Assembly: GCA_040285855.1 (NCBI GenBank)
Contig: JAUFOQ010000002.1
Span: 496,001-560,000 of the forward strand
Reading direction: 5' to 3'
From: Eukaryota sp. GEM-RC1
Lineage: Eukaryota
DNA length: 64,000 bases
A program made the position numbers and the translations under genes. Positions 13,868-24,547 of the stretch are shown here, one piece after another. Position 1 is the first letter of the stretch; each line of letters opens with the position of its first letter. A model generated the notes under the pieces. That model saw only the letters and a list, made by a program, of their open reading frames with translations, did no database searches and had not been told where the DNA came from.

Positions 13868-14165
13868 AAAACGTTTCAGAACTCCCAAAGCTCTTTTCAA
13901 CCCTGCCAAACCTGATTTATGATTGCTCTTAGCTATTATTTACCTGAACCTGCCATGATTGGTCTTGAATCTCCCGCTATTCATGAACAAACCTACAAGT
14001 CTATCATGAATCGACAAACGTATGGAGAAGGAAATGATCAACCAAGCTCCTCCTGCTGTAAAGATTAAGATTGTTGCTCCCCCAGAAAGAAAGTACTCTG
14101 TATAGATTGGAGGTTCCATTTTGTAATCTTTGACCACCTATGAATCTATGTGGATTACTCGTGAA
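13868..14165 (+). pseudogene. ACT: Actin C-terminal fragment (pseudogene)
   Basis: RFRTPKALFNPA, MIGLESPAIHEQTYKSIM and [33 protein letters not shown]; two stops, an internal deletion and a 40-bp insertion flanked by CCTGCCA. Confidence 0.85.
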
Positions 14166-14487
14166 CATGTTATTATACCCTCTATGCGTATTGATTGTCC
14201 GTTAGGGGATTTTCCCTGTGTTCAGTAGTTCGACTCCGTTTTAAATGATAGTTCAGATAAATATGAGTTTGTGCTGGAATAAATCACCTATATATATAGT
14301 AAATCGCAACTCAAAGTGACATTCAAGTTACAATTTTTACTACTTCGACAACTGCTCAATATCGATGAATTGCTTTAGTTTCAGATATTGGGGTCTTGTA
14401 GTGTATTCCTTGTTATAAAGATACTAGTATGTCATTGTGCTCATTTTCAACATCTTTCATAAATCATGTATATCTTATAGTTTTCAA

Positions 14488-14558
14488 CAAATGATGTATC
14501 ACCAAATGTTGTTGTAACAAATGTTGTACTACTAAATGTTGTTGTTACATATGTTGTC
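14488..14558 (+). repeat. About five imperfect 15-bp tandem repeats (CAAATGTTGT...)
   Basis: caaatgatgtatcac / caaatgttgttgtaa / caaatgttgtactac / taaatgttgttgtta / catatgttgtc. Confidence 0.75.
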
Positions 14559-14698: not shown

Positions 14699-14952
14699 CA
14701 AACACGATCACGTGTTTAAGGATATGCCAAGAGAACATATTTTCTCGAGGCGTTCCTTTGTTCTACCTTTGTTGCATGGTTTGTTTACTCACTTTTCGTC
14801 ACTCAAACACGATCACGTGTTTAAGGATGTGCCAAGAGAACATATTTTCTCGAGGCGTTCCTTTGTTTATACTCTTCTTTCTAACTTTTCGTCATTCAAA
14901 CACGATCACGTGTTTAAGGATATGCCAAGAGAACATATTTTCTCGAGGCGTT
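14699..14952 (+). repeat. Three 56-bp direct repeats separated by 49- and 37-bp spacers
   Basis: CAAACACGATCACGTGTTTAAGGATRTGCCAAGAGAACATATTTTCTCGAGGCGTT at 14699, 14804 and 14897. Confidence 0.95.
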
Positions 14953-15137
14953 TCTTTTTCTCTCATGGATTCTCGAATTATTCTATGCTGTTTCTTCTTT
15001 TGTTGTTGTTAGAGAAAGTCATGAGTTCGTCTCAGTCGTTGTTTTGTTTTTACGATCATAAAGTCAGCACTTGTATGGTTTTTCTACAATCAAGTCTCCA
15101 GTCATCACAATTTCTCCGTGATTTGACTATCGATGGA

Positions 15138-15161
15138 GACATAGAGTCAAACCCTGGTCCT
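15138..15161 (+). other. 2A-like StopGo ribosome-skipping motif
   Basis: FLRDLTIDGDIESNPGP matches D(V/I)ExNPGP. Confidence 0.85.
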
Positions 15162-15790
15162 TTTGTCACTGAGGAAGGAATCACCACATTGAAGCCCTCC
15201 GTATGGCTCGATGATTCTGTTGTTGACTTTTATGGTGAGTACATCACCGAGAATAGTGAGTTATGCCAGTTTTTCCGTATCGGGAATCTTCATGCTGCAG
15301 TGAGTTATGGCAATTTTGACACATTAGCTCTTGAATTTCTAAATGTTCAGAATTCAATGCGAGAAACTGGGAAAAGGTTTTTATTTATTTTAATTAACGA
15401 TGGTGTCTTTCGTGGTACATCAACTCATTGGACTTTACTTGTTTGTGACATTGATAGTACGTCATTTTTTCACTTGATCCAATGTACACTGACAGTTCAA
15501 CTCAACTTTCATTTGACGTTTTAACTCAAAATGATCAAGTTGTAAGTACATTACAGGAATATTTGCGTCATTTTGGTAATTTTTCCAATTTAGGAAAGCT
15601 CCCAGTTATTAAACAGCAAACTTTTAATGACTGTGGACCATTTATCTTAATGTATATGCAAAGATTTGTTCATTTGGCATCAACATCAGACAATTTCCAG
15701 AAAATTATGTTTCAAGTCCAAGGTTATGTCGATTATGATGCTTTTGAAATGAGAAAACAAGTTCTAAATCTAATAGCAACCACGCATTCT
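15162..15790 (+). CDS. Peptidase C48 (SENP8/Ulp1-like) domain 1
   Basis: LKPSVWLDDSVVDFY, INDGVFRGTSTHWTLLVCD, FFH(F)D and QQTFNDCGPF give H-D-C plus the oxyanion Q. One frameshift near 15474. Confidence 0.85.
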
Positions 15791-16139: not shown

Positions 16140-16790
16140 TTTTACTAAGATCTGATCAAATTGACACACTGAAACCAAATGTACTGCTTCATGATTCTGT
16201 CATTGACTATGTTGGTCAGTACATTGCTCAAAAGAGTAATCTATGCGAGTTCTTTGAAGTAGCCAACATTCAAGATGCAAACAATCTTTCACAATATAAC
16301 ATAATGTTTGAACAATTTAGAGAGGTTCAATTATCAATGGAAAAATCCAGTAAAAGACACACTAAAAAGTGTAAGAAACGTTTCTTGTTTATTCCAATAC
16401 ATGACGGTCTTTTTGGTACAACAGCTACTCACTGGTCACTGTTAATCTGTGATATTGAAAATAAACAATACTTCTCTATTGACTCAATGTGTACAGAAGA
16501 TCAACATTCTCAGTTTTCTAACACTTTATCACGTATTGACAATGTCATTTCACAATTACAACAATTCCTGTTTGATATGGCAAATTTCAGCTACATAGCT
16601 AGAGTACCAGTTCAACAAGTCCAAACTCTTAATGACTGTGGTCTATCTATTCTAATGTATATGAATAAAATTGTCGAGAGTGAATCAAAATCAACAAATC
16701 TTTTCGAAATTCTGTCTAAAGTCTCTAATTGTGTTGTTTATAATCCATTTGAAATGAGAAAACAAATACTGTCTCAAATCGTTACTACTC
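16140..16790 (+). CDS. Peptidase C48 (SENP8/Ulp1-like) domain 2
   Basis: LKPNVLLHDSVIDY, THWSLLICD, FSIDS and QVQTLNDCGL. Confidence 0.85.
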
Positions 16791-17404
16791 ACCCTGATGA
16801 AGATCACCCTGATGAATACCGACAATATGTATGTACTCATGCCCAAGGTATTTTAAATGAGTTTTATTCTGATGAGATTGAATCACCTGTTAATCAACCT
16901 GTACAGTGTCAATCTGAAAGTTTAACTCCTGAAACAATGGTAGATGATAGTAGTTACAAGGAAACGGTGTCAAAGCTCACTTATCAAAACTTTCTCAAAA
17001 GTTTACCTGGAAATTTATCTAACCGGAAAAAGAAACGTCTTTTGAAGTTAAAAATGATTGAACAAGCGCTGGAAGAAGCTGAAGAATTATTTCAAGAAAG
17101 TTATCATAACTTTAGTCGTCCAGAGTTAAAAGATCTTCCAGAAATAAATTTACCAACTCCAAAAATAAATGTTGCTGCTTGTGAGAAACCTGATACAACA
17201 GAAACAGCAGAAACAATTGAGTCATCTGACACCACTGAACCAACAACAGCAACAGGTAATAGAAAGACAACAGTTGCCAAAAGGAAAACCACCAAACCAA
17301 AAGCAAGTGGAGTATCAAATGCGACAAAGAGTTTGAAACCTCCTAAAAAACCAATGATTGAGTTTCTCAAACATTCCCAATTACCAAATAACTCTAATCA
17401 TTGT

Positions 17405-18130
17405 TCAATATTGTCTTTTGATATTGAAACTAGAGAAATTGATCAAATTCCTGCAGAAACACTTACAGAGGAGTTGGATGATCAAAGAAAGTACGAGAAT
17501 GAATCTCTCAAAATGAAAAGTGATGCAGAAAAAGAAGTGTGGATTCAAAACCAACAAGTTTTTATGATTTCTGGAGTGTTTGGTCATTTTATAAAAGATC
17601 AATTTTACCTTCAAGACAATTTTGTTGCAACTTTAGAGTTGACTCATGAATCTGATGTTGAACTGCCACCTGATTGTAGAAACCTTCGATTTTTTGAAAA
17701 CGAAAAACAGTTACTAGAGTTTTTTGTCAACTATTTGAATGATAAAAATCCCTCAGTTTTAACTGGATTTAACATAACTGACTTCGATAATGTTGTTTTA
17801 GGCAACAGGATTGTTACACTTGGAGTCGACTTTCCAGAACCAATGCTAGATGAAACAACTAAATCTCATTTATCATCTCTATGGCAAAATGTTCGTTCTG
17901 AATGGGCTGGTAGAATTGTCTGTGATTCATACGTTTATGCTAAGCAATTTATTGTTTCAAAATGTTCAAAGTCTTTAAGATCATTAAGTTGATTTTTATT
18001 AAACGAATCTAAAGGACGTCTTCATGACGAATTTCACCACTTATTGCCTATTGATTGTGTTGATGAAAGACCTCAAGAAGTTGTAAACTATTGCTTCAAA
18101 GATAGTGTAATAGCATTGAAGTTGTTTTTA
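17405..18130 (+). CDS. Family-B DNA polymerase-type DEDDy 3'-5' exonuclease domain; no polymerase domain follows
   Basis: ExoI SFDIET, ExoII LTGFNITDFD, ExoIII YCFKD; in-frame TGA at 17990-17992. Confidence 0.85.
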
Positions 18131-18149
18131 TTGTTTCAATCAAATAAAA

Positions 18150-20425
18150 TCGTTCGTCCAACTTTTGTAACACATAAAACTACACTCAAGTCTATTGTCA
18201 AACATTTTGGATTAACGCTATTACTCGATTATTATGCTCAATTGTTTCACAAACTTAGAATGCACACTTCCTATTGTTTGAAGCCGTTTTTATTACACAT
18301 GGATAAGAATGGTGAAAAATTACCTTTAATTACAAGGAAAGAAGTAGAACATATTCAAACTCTGTTAAGAAACATCTCTGCTGAACATCATGAGATTAGA
18401 TTATGTAATCAAGGACGACCTCCTACATTTAATGAACACTTGAAAAACTTTGTTTTAGAAGAATACAAACAAGTAATGCTCAACAATGGAGGAATTCCAC
18501 TCTTTCCAGCTGCTCATTCCTCACGACTTATGGCAATGGTTGGTGAAACTATTAAATCGAATTTGGACACCAATATTAAAATGCGATATGCTCAATACAT
18601 TGACAAATTTATTAATGTTTATTTTCAAAAGACTGATCAAGAAGAAAAAATGCCAAAAAAGAACAATCTGTTTTTCGTTGGAGACTTAGACAAGTTAAAA
18701 ATGTCTTTCTTGAAGGTAACAGAAATGACATTCCAAAAACCCCTGCAGAAATAAAACAATTTATTCAAAGATGTAATACAGAAATTCTTCAAGAGGACAG
18801 TAACAGAAGTTTGAACATTGCAGGTAAAATTAAACTTCTGTGGGCAACTAACGACTATGTTGAAGGATTGTTTAGAGAGAGATATTTTATTGATGTTCTC
18901 TTTCCACCATCAATTGATATTCAAAATGCTAATGGTGTTTAGAAAAAGAAAGTCGTTAAATCTCTACTAAAAATCAGTTCGTGAACATCCTCAATCCTTT
19001 ATTAAATCTGCGATTCAAATAAATAACTATCTTGAAAGTGAAGGAGCAAGTGCTTACAATGTAATTCCGATTGTTCGTCAAGTCACACCAGGTTTCTTTG
19101 AAATAGACACACAAAGTCTTTGGGGAATACTACGTTCCACTTTGTCAACAAAGCAAGTGTATGTCAAGAAAAGACAATCTGAGTGGAATTCACAAACTGA
19201 AATTCAAAAATGTCTCCTGCGGAACAAAATCAATTCTGGTCCTACTTTTTCAACTTTAATCGTCCATTTATAAAGAAAGGTTATAAGTTTAACAATACCA
19301 TTAAAACTGATGGTTTCTCTGCCTGTGTTGAACTCACCAGAGAGGACTGTGTGGGAATGTCCTTTAAACCAGACAGTGCAAAGTTCTCTAGTAAAGAAGA
19401 ATATGTTCAAGACTATGATGTTGAAGAGTTTTCATTGAAAACAAAAGTGTTTATTGATCCTGGAAAAACAGATTTACTCTATTTTTGTTCAGAGAAAGTA
19501 AATAGGCCATTTCCTGAACAAAAAGCCCGAGAAAGAAGAGACAAAGAATATGAGTGGCTAAGATTGACAGAGACAGAATGGTCCAGATGGTCAAGGGTTC
19601 ATCAAAAGTTTAGAAGGGGAAAGAAAAAAGAATTCATTCTCCAAGATGGAAAAACAGTTGAAGAAGAAGAGAAAATTCCAAAGAAAATTCAAAATCGACT
19701 CTTTATGACACATTCTATGACTATGTGGGTTCCAAACTAACAGTTATTGAATCAACATTTGACTACTACTGTTTGATGATATGGCGCATTCAAAAATGCA
19801 AAGATACGTCCATATTCAAAAAACAGAAAGTAAGTTGTTGAAAAATATGACTGCAAAAGGATGGAATAAAAATGACTGTGTATTGATGTTTGGTGACAAT
19901 GGTAATAAGAGGCAGAACCTAAAACACCTCCGATCAAGTAGAGGTGTGGGTTGGAGAAAACTTCTTTAGGTGAAATGATTACAATATTGTTCTTGTAGAT
20001 GAGAGTTACACGTCTTCAAAGTGTCCTACTTGTTGGAAGCCAGTTAAAGTGTTCAAAGATTTCAGTAATCCAAAACCATGGAAAAGAGAGAAGAAACCTC
20101 TGGTAAAGTGTCACGCTTTGTTGAGATGTAAGTCCCAAGAATGTAGAGAAGAATGTCATGGTACACGTCTTCAAAGTGTCCTACTTGTTGGAAGCCAGTT
20201 AAAGTGTTCAAAGATTTCAGTAATCCAAAACCATGGAAAAGAGAGAAGAAACCTCTGGTAAAGTGTCACGCTTTGTTGAGATGTAAGTCCCAAGAATGTA
20301 GAGAAGAATGTCATGGTAGCGCCAAGGTTTGGAATCGTAACAAGTTGGCATGTATCAACATCAAAACCATTGTGGAGCATCATTTGGAGCGGGGTCTAGG
20401 AGTTAGACCCAGTTATTTGTCATAG
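18150..20425 (+). pseudogene. Fanzor1 (eukaryotic TnpB homologue), disrupted
   Basis: KTTLKSIV, FEIDTQSL, IKTDGFSAC, RuvC-I FIDPG, VLMFGD, RuvC-II LVDESYTSSKCPTC, CHALLRC...C, WNRNKLACINI and terminal RPSYL. Confidence 0.88.
20007..20316 (+). repeat. Perfect 155-bp tandem duplication of the Fanzor zinc-finger region
   Basis: 20007-20161 is identical to 20162-20316. Confidence 0.92.
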
Positions 20426-20790
20426 TCATAGTCATAGCGTTTTTACTACAGTGAATCTGTAGCATTATTGAATCTTAGAATTTGTTAGACATCTTCTCAG
20501 ATTCAATCATGATTCATGAGATTCAATCATTAATGTGTACAATATCAAATTATCACACTTAACTAACACTACTTTATCCCTCCATCACTCTTGTAAACAT
20601 CACAGCCAATGAATACGACTCCTTAAATCCAATCCCACAACAATATTCACACATCACTTTACGAAATTCCTCCAATATTCCTAAACATTGTTCATCACAA
20701 AACAAAATATCATTTAAATCTTGTATCGACACAACAAAAGTAGAAATTTTTGTATAGGGACAGAATTTTTAAAGGGACATTAAGGTTTCG
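20426..20790 (+). ncRNA. Candidate Fanzor omegaRNA scaffold / element right end
   Basis: Lies just after the Fanzor stop; hairpins CTACAG-tgaat-CTGTAG (20446-20462) and ATTGAATCTTAGAA...TTCTCAGATTCAAT (20467-20507). Confidence 0.4.
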
Positions 20791-20900
20791 TGTAACACTC
20801 AACTGTTTATTCATATACAGTACATACATTCAGTAACAATACATACAGCTGCATCTCAGAGGGCAGAATTAAATACCAGAGTAATACTGCTAGTGGTACT

Positions 20901-21910
20901 CAGGGGTTTGAAATATGGCATGGGCCATATTATGGATTGTGTCCAAATCAGTTGCCGCCATAATGGCCATAATCAATTACGCTTCCCATACTTATGGCCA
21001 TTATGGACCCCATAACAACAGCAACAACAATACAGTTTATTTTCAATAAAAAATAACAAGGAATCAGACCTTATATAACATATCTGAACTTTCAATCTAT
21101 AAAAACCTCTTCTTCATCATTGTCGTCTCTCAAAATGGATGAAACAGTTTCCTGGTCGCACTGGTCTTTGTACATCATTTGAAATAGCTGCCTTTCAAGA
21201 TTTGCATTAGTTAGAGAGAACCATAACAAAACCATTAGCTGTCGGGCACGACTGAAGAGTCGTTCGACTGGGTTGGGTTTACTGTCACTTGTTGAAATGG
21301 GAAACACTGACTTCTCATTTCCTTCTACACAAATTACAGTAATTAGTGTACGTAACACTAATTGTTGCAAAAACTTATGGAAAATACTTTTGGCAACAAA
21401 TAGTGTAACTGTCGAAAAAACTATGTTATAGAAAAACGATAATGTAGTTTGTTCTTCGGCTTTGCTATATTCTTGAGCAACTGAATCACTGGCTTCTACC
21501 TCTTGACTTACTTCTACTGAGGCCCAAACTTGACAACGATCAGTAACTTGGTCAAGACTCGGTATTCGAGCCTACTGTTTTGGGGGAGGTTGGATAGTGT
21601 GTTAAGATAATTAATTGACAACAATAACACCACTATTTCCACTCATCCTAGCAAAATTGATCAACAGTTTTTGTCAAGGAATATATTTTATAGGTTTTAC
21701 CGATCACAGAACCCTAAAATCCACTGTTTAAATGTATTTATTACTGCTGTTTCCCCATAAGTTGGTTAATTGAAATCTAGAAATTATGGACCCCCATATA
21801 TGGCCATGATATGGGACGAATAGCCATAATTGATTTTGACGTTCCATACTTATGGTATGGCCATTATGGGGAATTATGGATATGGGTCCATGCCGTATTT
21901 CAAACCCCTG
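20901..21910 (-). mobile_element. Deleted hAT DNA transposon
   Basis: TIRs CAGGGGTTTGAAATAYGGCATGG, flanking (A)GTGGTAC duplication, and an internal remnant PNPVERLFSRAR...SLTNANLERQLF resembling the hAT C-terminal dimerisation domain. Confidence 0.85.
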
Positions 21911-22074
21911 AGTGGTACCACATCTGTCACGTCATAGGAAATGTCCTATTCCAATATCTTTCACTTTTCTTAAGAAATGGACCAATTAAGAAGGAAACTT
22001 CAATAGAAATTCCGTTTTCAAAACGAACGATGAAGCGCCTTTGATTTTACTATTGTACATTAACCTTTGTGAAT

Positions 22075-22689: not shown

Positions 22690-23536
22690 AGGCGGCTTTA
22701 GTTAGCAGTCTGATTCATCAAACAGCGGTTTTGGATCGTTTGGATCCTGTTTGAGTTTTTGCCATTATGTTGTAGTGGTGGGGAATTTTATAAGAAATCA
22801 TTCTACAACTAGTGCTAAATGCTCTCACACTGTGTCACACATCATGTGGTGGGCCCTAGTATCTGATAGAGTACTCAAAACATCCCAAAAAGGCGCTATA
22901 AAAAACGACCTGCTGAGGATTGTTATTACAAAAATTGACTCCAACTCGATAGCCACAAGTACATTCCGCGGCAGAACAGTTCGACTAGGAAAGATTTTCA
23001 GAAGAACTTTCAGTATTGTTTATTGTGCCTTCAGAAGTGAAATGCGTCAAAATATCTCAAATGTCCACATTTCTGCGCATTTTGTTCAACTGTAATTTCA
23101 TTGTAGAAGAAAACTGCTAGTGTTTGTTGTCGATACAAATTCACGTCATAATTCTTAAAGAAAAACAGAATTCAATTGAGAATTGTACTTTAACAAATAT
23201 TTAAACATGTGTTACGTCAGTTTATAGATGATGAGGACAAAATTTAATATCACATTAATATCTATCAATTACTAGCTACAGGAACTTCCTGGTCAGTTCT
23301 TATACATTACTTAAACTTAGTGATATTGTTTACGAAATTTGGACTCCGATAGGAACCGAGAAAACATCAAACGATTTTGCATAATTGCTAAGCCACTTCA
23401 CCAATAGTACCGAAAATAGAAATATCTAATGTAACAAACACAAATTTTAATTCAGTTTAGCATCATCTCTGAAATACAAATCAATTTTACGTTTTTCAGC
23501 TTGTTTTAAGTTGGTTGATACCTTTTGTGGTTAAGC

Positions 23537-23897
23537 CAGGGCTCTTCAAAAAATAATTGCAAAATGCAATTATTGCAATAACACTGTATTGCAGTATTGC
23601 AACTGCTTGAAATATTGCAGGACGGTATTGCGTGTTGTTTCGTTATTGCAGTTATTGTAAGCAATACTCAACCAATTACCGAAACCGTTTTTTTGTTGTT
23701 TTTTATCATGATCTAGTAGTAGTGTGGTGTATTCAAAGCATAAATTATAAAATTGGCGGGTGTTGTAAATACCAGTGTATAAAATAACAGTAATGTACCA
23801 CTTAAGCAGCAAATTTGTCGTTGAAAAATACTGCAGTACAGTATTGCAGCAACATAAATTCTCACAATATATTGCAATTATTTTTTGAAGTGTCCTG
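23537..23897. mobile_element. 361-bp hAT-type MITE
   Basis: TIRs CAGG(GCT/ACA)CTTCAAAAAATAATTGCAA with a perfect 8-bp TSD GGTTAAGC at 23529-23536 and 23898-23905. Confidence 0.9.
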
Positions 23898-24547
23898 GGT
23901 TAAGCTATTAACATAAGTCTGAACACATGGATCTAATGTTGCAACAACAAGGATGGTTTGTCTGGAATCAATAAAAGAAACATGTAAGTCGCCTCGACGA
24001 GAACTATTAATAAACTAAAGACCTAACTTACTAAATAGAGGTTCACCTTTGGTATAAAATCCATGAGCTTTACACATTTCAAAATGTAACATCTCTGATA
24101 GCATTATAAAGAACATAACGAAATTGAATATTATTTGGGACAATTTAATTTAACAGAATTGTTGAGTAATTCTGCAGACAACAATCCCAAAAGTAAGCGC
24201 ATATTTAATTCCAAGCCTCATCAGATCACGGCAAACCAAAAGGACGTGGTTGTTGAGTGATTAAACAAGATGAATTCTTAATATCATTTAAGAAAGCAGC
24301 CAAAACTGGGTTTATAAGTTTTAGTAACACTAAAACGATTTTTGAAATCCAGTTTTTCAAATGCCTTCTTAAGCTTATTTTGAAGGTTATTTACGCACAA
24401 CGAGAGAGACAATAGAGATTTCTACGTACTCCACAGTAAATGACTCGGAAAACAGTTGTTCCAATTCACTAAATAGTCTTCGTTAGTGATTAAAGAGTTT
24501 AACCATCTGAAAATTAATGAGATTTTCACAGTCTATTACACATTTCA

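Follow-up and report, generated by a model that had tools for sequence, protein, structure and literature searches.

A PolB-type exonuclease fused to Fanzor1 in a broken skoliomonad polyprotein gene copy: a possible role in trimming Fanzor-cut 3′ ends

Introduction

Why would a 3′-5′ exonuclease of the family B DNA polymerase (PolB) type run directly into a Fanzor? The question is raised by a stretch of 64,000 nucleotides from Eukaryota sp. GEM-RC1 (assembly GCA_040285855.1, contig JAUFOQ010000002.1, positions 496,001 to 560,000, forward strand), which we call the window and number from its first letter. An earlier note on this DNA described a stand-alone PolB exonuclease joined to the Fanzor N-terminus, and proposed that it could trim cut ends, as a natural analogue of engineered nuclease-exonuclease fusions. 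What Fanzors do in nature has been described as unknown (PMC10432273). GEM-RC1 and two further isolates considered below, TZLM3-RCL and TZLM1-RC (NCBI names), are treated as Skoliomonas, a metamonad (PMC11603281; 10.1101/2023.05.03.539051).

Results

Exonuclease and Fanzor1 meet in one frame

We located three exonuclease motifs in the window translation: ExoI (SFDIET, 17414-17431; D 17420, E 17426), ExoII (GFNITDFD, 17765-17788, with its final D, 17786, as the conserved one) and ExoIII (YCFKD, 18089-18103; Y18089, D18101). They share one frame and have the forms D-x-E, N-x3-F-D and Y-x3-D; every DEDDy residue listed in the earlier note was found where it had been placed. Pfam DNA_pol_B_exo1 matched the region with E 2e-13. 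No polymerase domain was found in the 64-kb window, where eight PolB queries matched the exonuclease region only. The palm, fingers and thumb domain (PF00136) was also absent from the window and from all proteins scanned of the family described below, and we rejected a whole family B DNA polymerase for that reason. The exonuclease thus stands alone in lacking a polymerase domain, but not in its protein, where two Ulp1 domains and a 2A-like motif precede it (Table 1).

Similarity to Fanzor begins at about 18158, six codons past the last exonuclease helix and in the same frame, that is, directly after the exonuclease, where the polymerase domains would follow. The junction of the window copy is one uninterrupted frame. 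As a single sequence, query residues 244-438 matched SpuFz1 weakly (E 0.036); a family profile search of the PDB returned SpuFz1 as its top match (E 5e-19). The remnant retains the RuvC D (19456), E (20001) and third residue N (20339), and a zinc finger from 20022, but the RuvC residues are spread over broken frames.

Table 1. Parts of the element in the window, in window coordinates
Feature	Position	Strand	Basis
~60-nt core, three times, each two hairpins, with variable U-rich stretches between	14700-14759, 14805-14864, 14898-14957	+	Repeat and folding analysis
2A-like ribosome-skipping motif ending GDIESNPGP	15120..15161	+	Translation; fits GD[V/I]ExNPGP
Ulp1/C48 protease domain 1, His at 15426, Cys at 15632	15186..15770 (end approximate)	+	Pfam, translation
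Ulp1/C48 protease domain 2, His 16430, Cys 16637	16166..16790 (end approximate)	+	Pfam Peptidase_C48, translation
Low-complexity linker, partly basic	16800..17400	+	Translation
PolB-type DEDDy 3′-5′ exonuclease domain	17405..18139	+	DEDDy motifs, Pfam match, fold of relative P0012
In-frame TGA at a Trp position conserved in relatives	17990..17992	+	Translation, frameshift-aware alignment
Junction, six codons, last exonuclease helix to first Fanzor strand	18140..18157	+	Translation; P0086 model; fixed spacing
Fanzor1 remnant	18158..20425	+	Frameshift-aware alignment; family model against Fanzor1 structures
Exact 155-bp tandem duplication within the zinc-finger region	20007..20316	+	Repeat analysis of the window
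Candidate omega-RNA region, in the usual place behind the stop codon	20426..20520	+	Folding z-scores

The window copy is broken

As assembled, the window copy cannot make the exonuclease-Fanzor fusion protein. The in-frame TGA falls between ExoII and ExoIII, and the Fanzor half has at least five frameshifts (near 18653, 18970, 19202, 19675 and 19791), a stop at 18940 and a further break near 19965. A frameshift-aware alignment with a relative placed 947 residues side by side, 47% of them identical, with the TGA opposite Trp. Because of the TGA, the five frameshifts, the further stops and the 155-bp duplication, this copy is either dead or mis-assembled. Most of its frameshifts coincide with runs of A or T, the TGA being a base substitution, and the shift near 19791 is also present in the sister protein P0092; both the A/T-run pattern and P0092 fit long-read error as well as inheritance of the frameshifts. 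Reading TGA as Trp was tried and found unlikely, given that the element frame has TGG four times and TGA once and that many host ORFs end in TGA.

Behind the stop codon, the hand-picked candidate omega-RNA stretch folds with z -3.2, compared with a best value of -1.7 in fixed 100-nt windows over 20250-20800. TCATAG occurs three times at the Fanzor stop codon (20420-20437), possibly as a short microsatellite tail.

The fusion sits at the end of a polyprotein

Upstream of the exonuclease, a frameshift near 15460, in a run of T, interrupts Ulp1 domain 1, and domain 2 matches Pfam Peptidase_C48 in two stretches (E 3.6e-12). The 2A-like motif fits the published consensus, although by itself such a motif is insufficient for ribosome skipping (PMC3708506). 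Among the 91 proteins of our set, NPGP occurred in 10, all of them family members. The consensus GD[V/I]ExNPGP fits the window, P0057, P0081, P0085 and P0087; P0048 fits without the G, four proteins have H for E, and P0039 is degenerate. P0085 has the order of the window (2A, two Ulp1, exonuclease, Fanzor1) in a single protein of 1846 aa. One Ulp1 domain is found in P0016, P0081 and P0087, and none lies between the 2A motif and the exonuclease in P0015, P0039, P0048, P0057 and P0075. The whole unit, as predicted from these proteins, is a polyprotein in which a 2A-like peptide is followed by none, one or two Ulp1 proteases and then by exonuclease and Fanzor1. Since the number of Ulp1 domains differs and the junction spacing does not, the N-terminal cargo is variable and the exonuclease-Fanzor join is constant. 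No transposase or reverse transcriptase domain was found in the family proteins scanned, the window or the flanking ORFs scanned. In the predicted protein P0007 (KAL0221217.1), a DEAD/DEAH helicase lies N-terminal to exonuclease and Fanzor, as captured cargo or through a chimeric gene model.

Ahead of the 2A-like motif stand the three ~60-nt cores, which fold with z -5.96 (none of 200 shuffles was equally stable) and have these three matches only within the window. Both substitutions inside the cores preserve pairing through G-U wobble, which is weak evidence. Rfam held no family for the repeats and yielded one chance-level match, viral contigs gave no exact match of the core, and the spacers had no match in the window at up to 2 mismatches in 16 nt. 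The repeats may be leader repeats or a candidate guide-RNA cassette. N-terminal repeats, 31 or 51 residues long, occur in relatives as well.

Several other features neighbour the element. Upstream of the leader ORF are 15-bp tandem repeats (14486-14545), and directly upstream of the element lies a decayed fragment (13955-14165) that we take to resemble the 3′ part of an actin gene. Downstream is a ~1-kb, presumably hAT-like element (20898-21913), which contains a decayed ORF, has terminal inverted repeats of 29 nt and is apparently flanked by an 8-bp duplication. A MITE (23531-23903), which we assume to be piggyBac-like, has inverted repeats of 35 nt and TTAA at either end.

The junction recurs in divergent skoliomonad subfamilies

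We scanned 1.84 billion representative proteins with HMMER, using the exonuclease plus junction as a query. Of 63 matches, eight span the junction, and all eight come from the skoliomonad isolates TZLM3-RCL, TZLM1-RC and GEM-RC1. Summed over clusters, TZLM3-RCL has 43 predicted family proteins (12 clusters), TZLM1-RC has 5 (4 clusters) and GEM-RC1 has 5 (5 clusters); the sums include fragments of one copy, and three clusters were counted without a listing of members. Five proteins (P0001, P0007, P0008, P0085 and P0086) are predicted to be full length, reaching ExoI at one end and the final RuvC motif at the other and keeping every catalytic residue. Intact relatives are known as gene predictions, and some of the models (P0081, P0092) pass over breaks. 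Near-identical members on separate contigs suggest recent spread, and the gene family is multi-copy and likely mobile in these anaerobic single-celled eukaryotes.

Viral contigs yielded no relative of the fusion. In metagenome contigs at least 23 loci matched the exonuclease part only, with a Fanzor match in none of those listed; protein searches seeded with words have little sensitivity for distant forms. The ESM Atlas gave no usable match for the whole protein, and for the domain only generic PolB exonuclease clusters (0.84-0.85). Three of the metagenome loci (L011, L015 and L020) carry ORFs of ~260 aa with the exonuclease profile only, possibly stand-alone PolB-like exonucleases.

The catalytic residues are conserved across the family. 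In alignment A4 (36 rows, many of them near-copies), the ExoI D and E are kept in 17/17 rows that reach them, the ExoII D in 19/19, and the ExoIII D and Y in 17/17 and 16/17, respectively; the P0081 gene model skips ExoI. In the same alignment, skoliomonad rows reaching each RuvC site have D in 11/11, E in 7/8 and N as the third residue in 8/8. Exonuclease identity among seven subfamily representatives is 18-49%. In 19 of 20 proteins, 54 aa separate the ExoIII Asp from the first residue conserved in the Fanzor half, which is His in 16 and Asn, at the same offset, in 3; the P0092 gene model lacks the junction. The junction is thus not peculiar to the window copy, a weakness that the earlier note had foreseen for its reading: it recurs without indels in divergent subfamilies and in three isolates. 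Nor was a separate polymerase gene, the other weakness foreseen, found in the two places covered, the family proteins and the window.

Each half of the fusion forms one skoliomonad clade (support 100/99 for the exonuclease, 100/100 for the Fanzor), and both halves have the same basal split. Single clades with a shared basal split point to one old exonuclease-Fanzor fusion event. Ten close stand-alone Fanzor1s have no exonuclease domain, so the exonuclease is dispensable elsewhere. Judged from these sequences, the fusion is real, old and restricted to one lineage, with conserved catalytic sites and a function that is predicted.

These comparisons weigh against two of the alternatives. An assembly or annotation artefact, or chance juxtaposition, might be suspected of a copy so full of breaks whose relatives are gene predictions, but it is largely refuted, and in our view negligible, given the identical junction in three isolates and many subfamilies and the uninterrupted junction frame in the window. 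A non-catalytic or neutral passenger, be it a DNA-binding add-on or a frozen capture, would suit the stop inside the exonuclease of the window copy; the invariant catalytic residues in subfamilies so far diverged make it very improbable.

The exonuclease has the fold of RNA-primed family B polymerases

We compared the AlphaFold model of the exonuclease of P0012 (pLDDT 80) with 48,161 chains. The best match was a PolB exonuclease (Z 16.7, rmsd 3.0, 184 residues aligned); family B polymerases took ranks 1-18, with RNA-primed ones at ranks 1-17 (Z 12.7-16.7). Others scored lower: DnaQ 10.2, RNase T 9.4, REXO2 9.7, TREX1 8.9 and phi29 7.7, with ExoI, DnaQ and TREX at most 10.4. The family shares with the RNA-primed PolB exonucleases (Pol alpha/delta/epsilon, ASFV, HSV, RB69/T4, archaeal B and Pol II) the ExoI-II-III DEDDy set and the fold (rmsd 3.0-5.6, 165-194 aligned). 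Unlike them, it lacks a polymerase domain, has a conserved insertion of two helices behind ExoI and sits on a long branch.

The earlier note left the PolB origin between host Pol delta and giant virus or Polinton, and suggested a phylogeny. The best exonuclease profile match in the PDB was Pol delta (E 1e-12). In a tree of 52 rows the family lies on its long branch outside the Pol delta clade. With 16 delta-like or 18 archaeal-like rows as sister, AU p was 0.12 and 0.44; neither is rejected, and the tree names no donor. It was built after dropping 23 PolB-like rows (partial or without detectable ExoI, including the only Pol alpha) and 5 near-duplicates, covers no epsilon, zeta, protein-primed or Polinton rows, and consists mostly of unnamed rows, "delta-like" and "archaeal-like" being our labels. 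By the modelled fold, a protein-primed (Polinton-type) origin is disfavoured, with phi29 at Z 7.7 against 12.7-16.7; a delta and a viral or archaeal origin are both allowed.

The same fold comparison bears on the proposal that the domain trims the 3′ end of an omega-RNA precursor instead of DNA. Many DEDD enzymes are RNases, DEDD/RNase-type folds score Z 8-10 against P0012, and the domain is fused at the first WED strand, SpuFz1 WED residue K25 being a contact to RNA. However, the nearest folds are the DNA-proofreading PolBs, well above RNase T and REXO2, and other Fanzors mature their guides without an exonuclease. We consider such a role in guide maturation quite unlikely.

The nuclease half is a Fanzor1

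The C-terminal D...TS-C4 zinc finger...RD motif (Bao and Jurka 2013) is present as DPG, E-x-x-TSSKCPxC and WNR-N, with N for the final D. Foldseek matched the family model to SpuFz1, PpFz1 and GtFz1 (E 9e-23 to 1e-16), and the top seven PDB matches are Fanzor1 chains. The AlphaFold model of P0086 (pLDDT 78, pTM 0.58) retrieved Fanzor1 structures first and PolB exonucleases next, and in a viral structure library viral Fanzors led. At the junction, which the earlier note had wished to see modelled, P0086 is predicted to pass from a helix (220-242) to a strand (247-257). The third RuvC residue is D in four full-length stand-alone relatives (A4) and N in the skoliomonad family. A D-E-N triad is active in GtFz1, which shares it with the skoliomonad family, and D606N raised SpuFz1 activity (PMC11423790). 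With Fanzor1 (SpuFz1 8gkh/9ceu, PpFz1 9cf0, GtFz1 9cer; PMC10432273, PMC11423790) the family also has in common the fold, the TSS-C4 zinc-finger motif and a late RuvC-II Glu. The skoliomonad Fanzor1 is likely RNA-guided. Known Fanzors are 400-700 aa (PMC10432273), whereas here an exonuclease of ~240 aa is attached to the first strand, in a polyprotein of up to 1846 aa.

Discussion

Our preferred reading, held with moderate confidence, is that the exonuclease of this broken skoliomonad polyprotein gene copy and its relatives likely trims the Fanzor-cut 3′ end, so that the empty site would receive a copy of the element during repair. TnpB-type elements insert at a point marked by the TAM, and proofreading domains usually act on single-stranded 3′ ends. 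The Fanzor would cut empty sites 14-21 nt beyond the TAM, like SpuFz1 and GtFz1, the cut position of Fanzor1 lying there (PMC10432273). Given an insertion point at the TAM and a distal cut, the TAM-side fragment would end in ~16 nt of displaced non-target strand, mismatched to the element's left end, and copy-in repair could be completed only once this stretch is gone. The tethered exonuclease may then remove this ~16-nt tail, whereby re-ligation would be blocked and homologous repair would finish from the element-bearing copy. The 2A motif may release a leader peptide, and the Ulp1 domains may modulate silencing or repair that depends on SUMO. There is precedent for such trimming: T4 intron homing relies partly on the gp43 (PolB) 3′-5′ exonuclease (PMC2988022), and in yeast the proofreading activity of Pol delta trims invading 3′ ends and clears non-homologous tails (PMC9477423). 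Against end-trimming, a processive 3′-5′ exonuclease would oppose the 3′ overhangs required by homologous repair, close stand-alone Fanzor1s do not have such a domain, and editing dropped when exonucleases were fused artificially to a Fanzor2. From the one copy analysed with its flanks, no omega-RNA, TAM, element ends or empty site emerged.

The exonuclease might instead degrade the cut DNA extensively, so that the target, for example viral DNA or that of a competing element, is deleted or destroyed, with no homing. This would use the same conserved chemistry, giant-virus contigs and predicted viral proteins are among the closest Fanzors that stand alone, and the variable-spacer repeats (14700-14957) could supply several guides. 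We nevertheless think destruction of targets unlikely, as no spacer matched within the window and the many near-identical copies suit a selfish element.

It is also possible that the exonuclease helps the element to transpose or to escape host surveillance, by trimming ends or flaps or clearing free DNA, independently of Fanzor cuts. DEDD and DnaQ-like exonucleases are known in P, piggyBac and LTR elements (PMC3627910; PMC6338049), Ulp1 is a common cargo (PMC2836005), and 2A motifs mark non-LTR polyproteins (PMC3708506). Nevertheless, the exonuclease-Fanzor spacing is fixed, in contrast to the number of Ulp1 domains and the linkers, which vary by subfamily, and the scanned proteins and flanking ORFs lack a transposase or reverse transcriptase; an accessory role of this kind seems to us improbable.

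Trimming of Fanzor-cut ends, the reading we prefer, can be set beside known systems. Engineered fusions of TREX1, TREX2 and T5 to evoMmeFz2 likewise tether an exonuclease to an RNA-guided nuclease, but they are artificial and impaired Fanzor2 editing (PMC12923547), whereas the skoliomonad fusion is natural, directly joined, of PolB type and co-diverged with its nuclease. A natural fusion of the kind proposed in the earlier note thus exists, and the analogy is weaker than proposed. In homing of the T4 td intron, with the gp43 exonuclease and DexA, a PolB 3′-5′ exonuclease also affects homing after the break, but there it is part of phage replication and a protein of its own, and the nuclease works without an RNA guide (PMC2988022). 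Ulp1 cargo is shared with the DNA transposons Ginger1 and Mutator (PMC2836005), and an N-terminal 2A-like motif with APE non-LTR elements (PMC3708506); unlike these, the skoliomonad element was not found to have an integrase, transposase, APE or RT domain. For the known superfamilies (Helitron, Mariner, MuDR, non-LTR), the window and proteins showed no transposase or RT, and no defined ends or target duplication emerged from the one copy compared.

We found no published description of an exonuclease-Fanzor fusion in the open literature searched; one may be listed in Repbase or a subscription journal. Such a fusion did not appear in the excerpts of PMC3627910, PMC10530073, PMC10432273, 10.1101/2023.08.09.552727 and 10.64898/2026.06.03.729735, and the word "Fanzor" was absent from the main text of the skoliomonad genome preprint (10.1101/2023.05.03.539051).

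In a bolder and rather speculative version, the whole unit would be a transposase-free element that spreads by its own RNA-guided cutting, trimming and copying, its polyprotein supplying nuclease, captured exonuclease and SUMO proteases and its 5′ repeats a small guide array. P0086, known as a predicted protein, is a natural exonuclease-Fanzor of ~940 aa. The fusion is a co-evolved template for end-trimming editors, a task at which artificial exonuclease-Fanzor fusions failed (PMC12923547). For the family itself, an end-processing enzyme is joined to a Fanzor, with both active sites kept through deep divergence, which makes the selected repair outcome directly testable.
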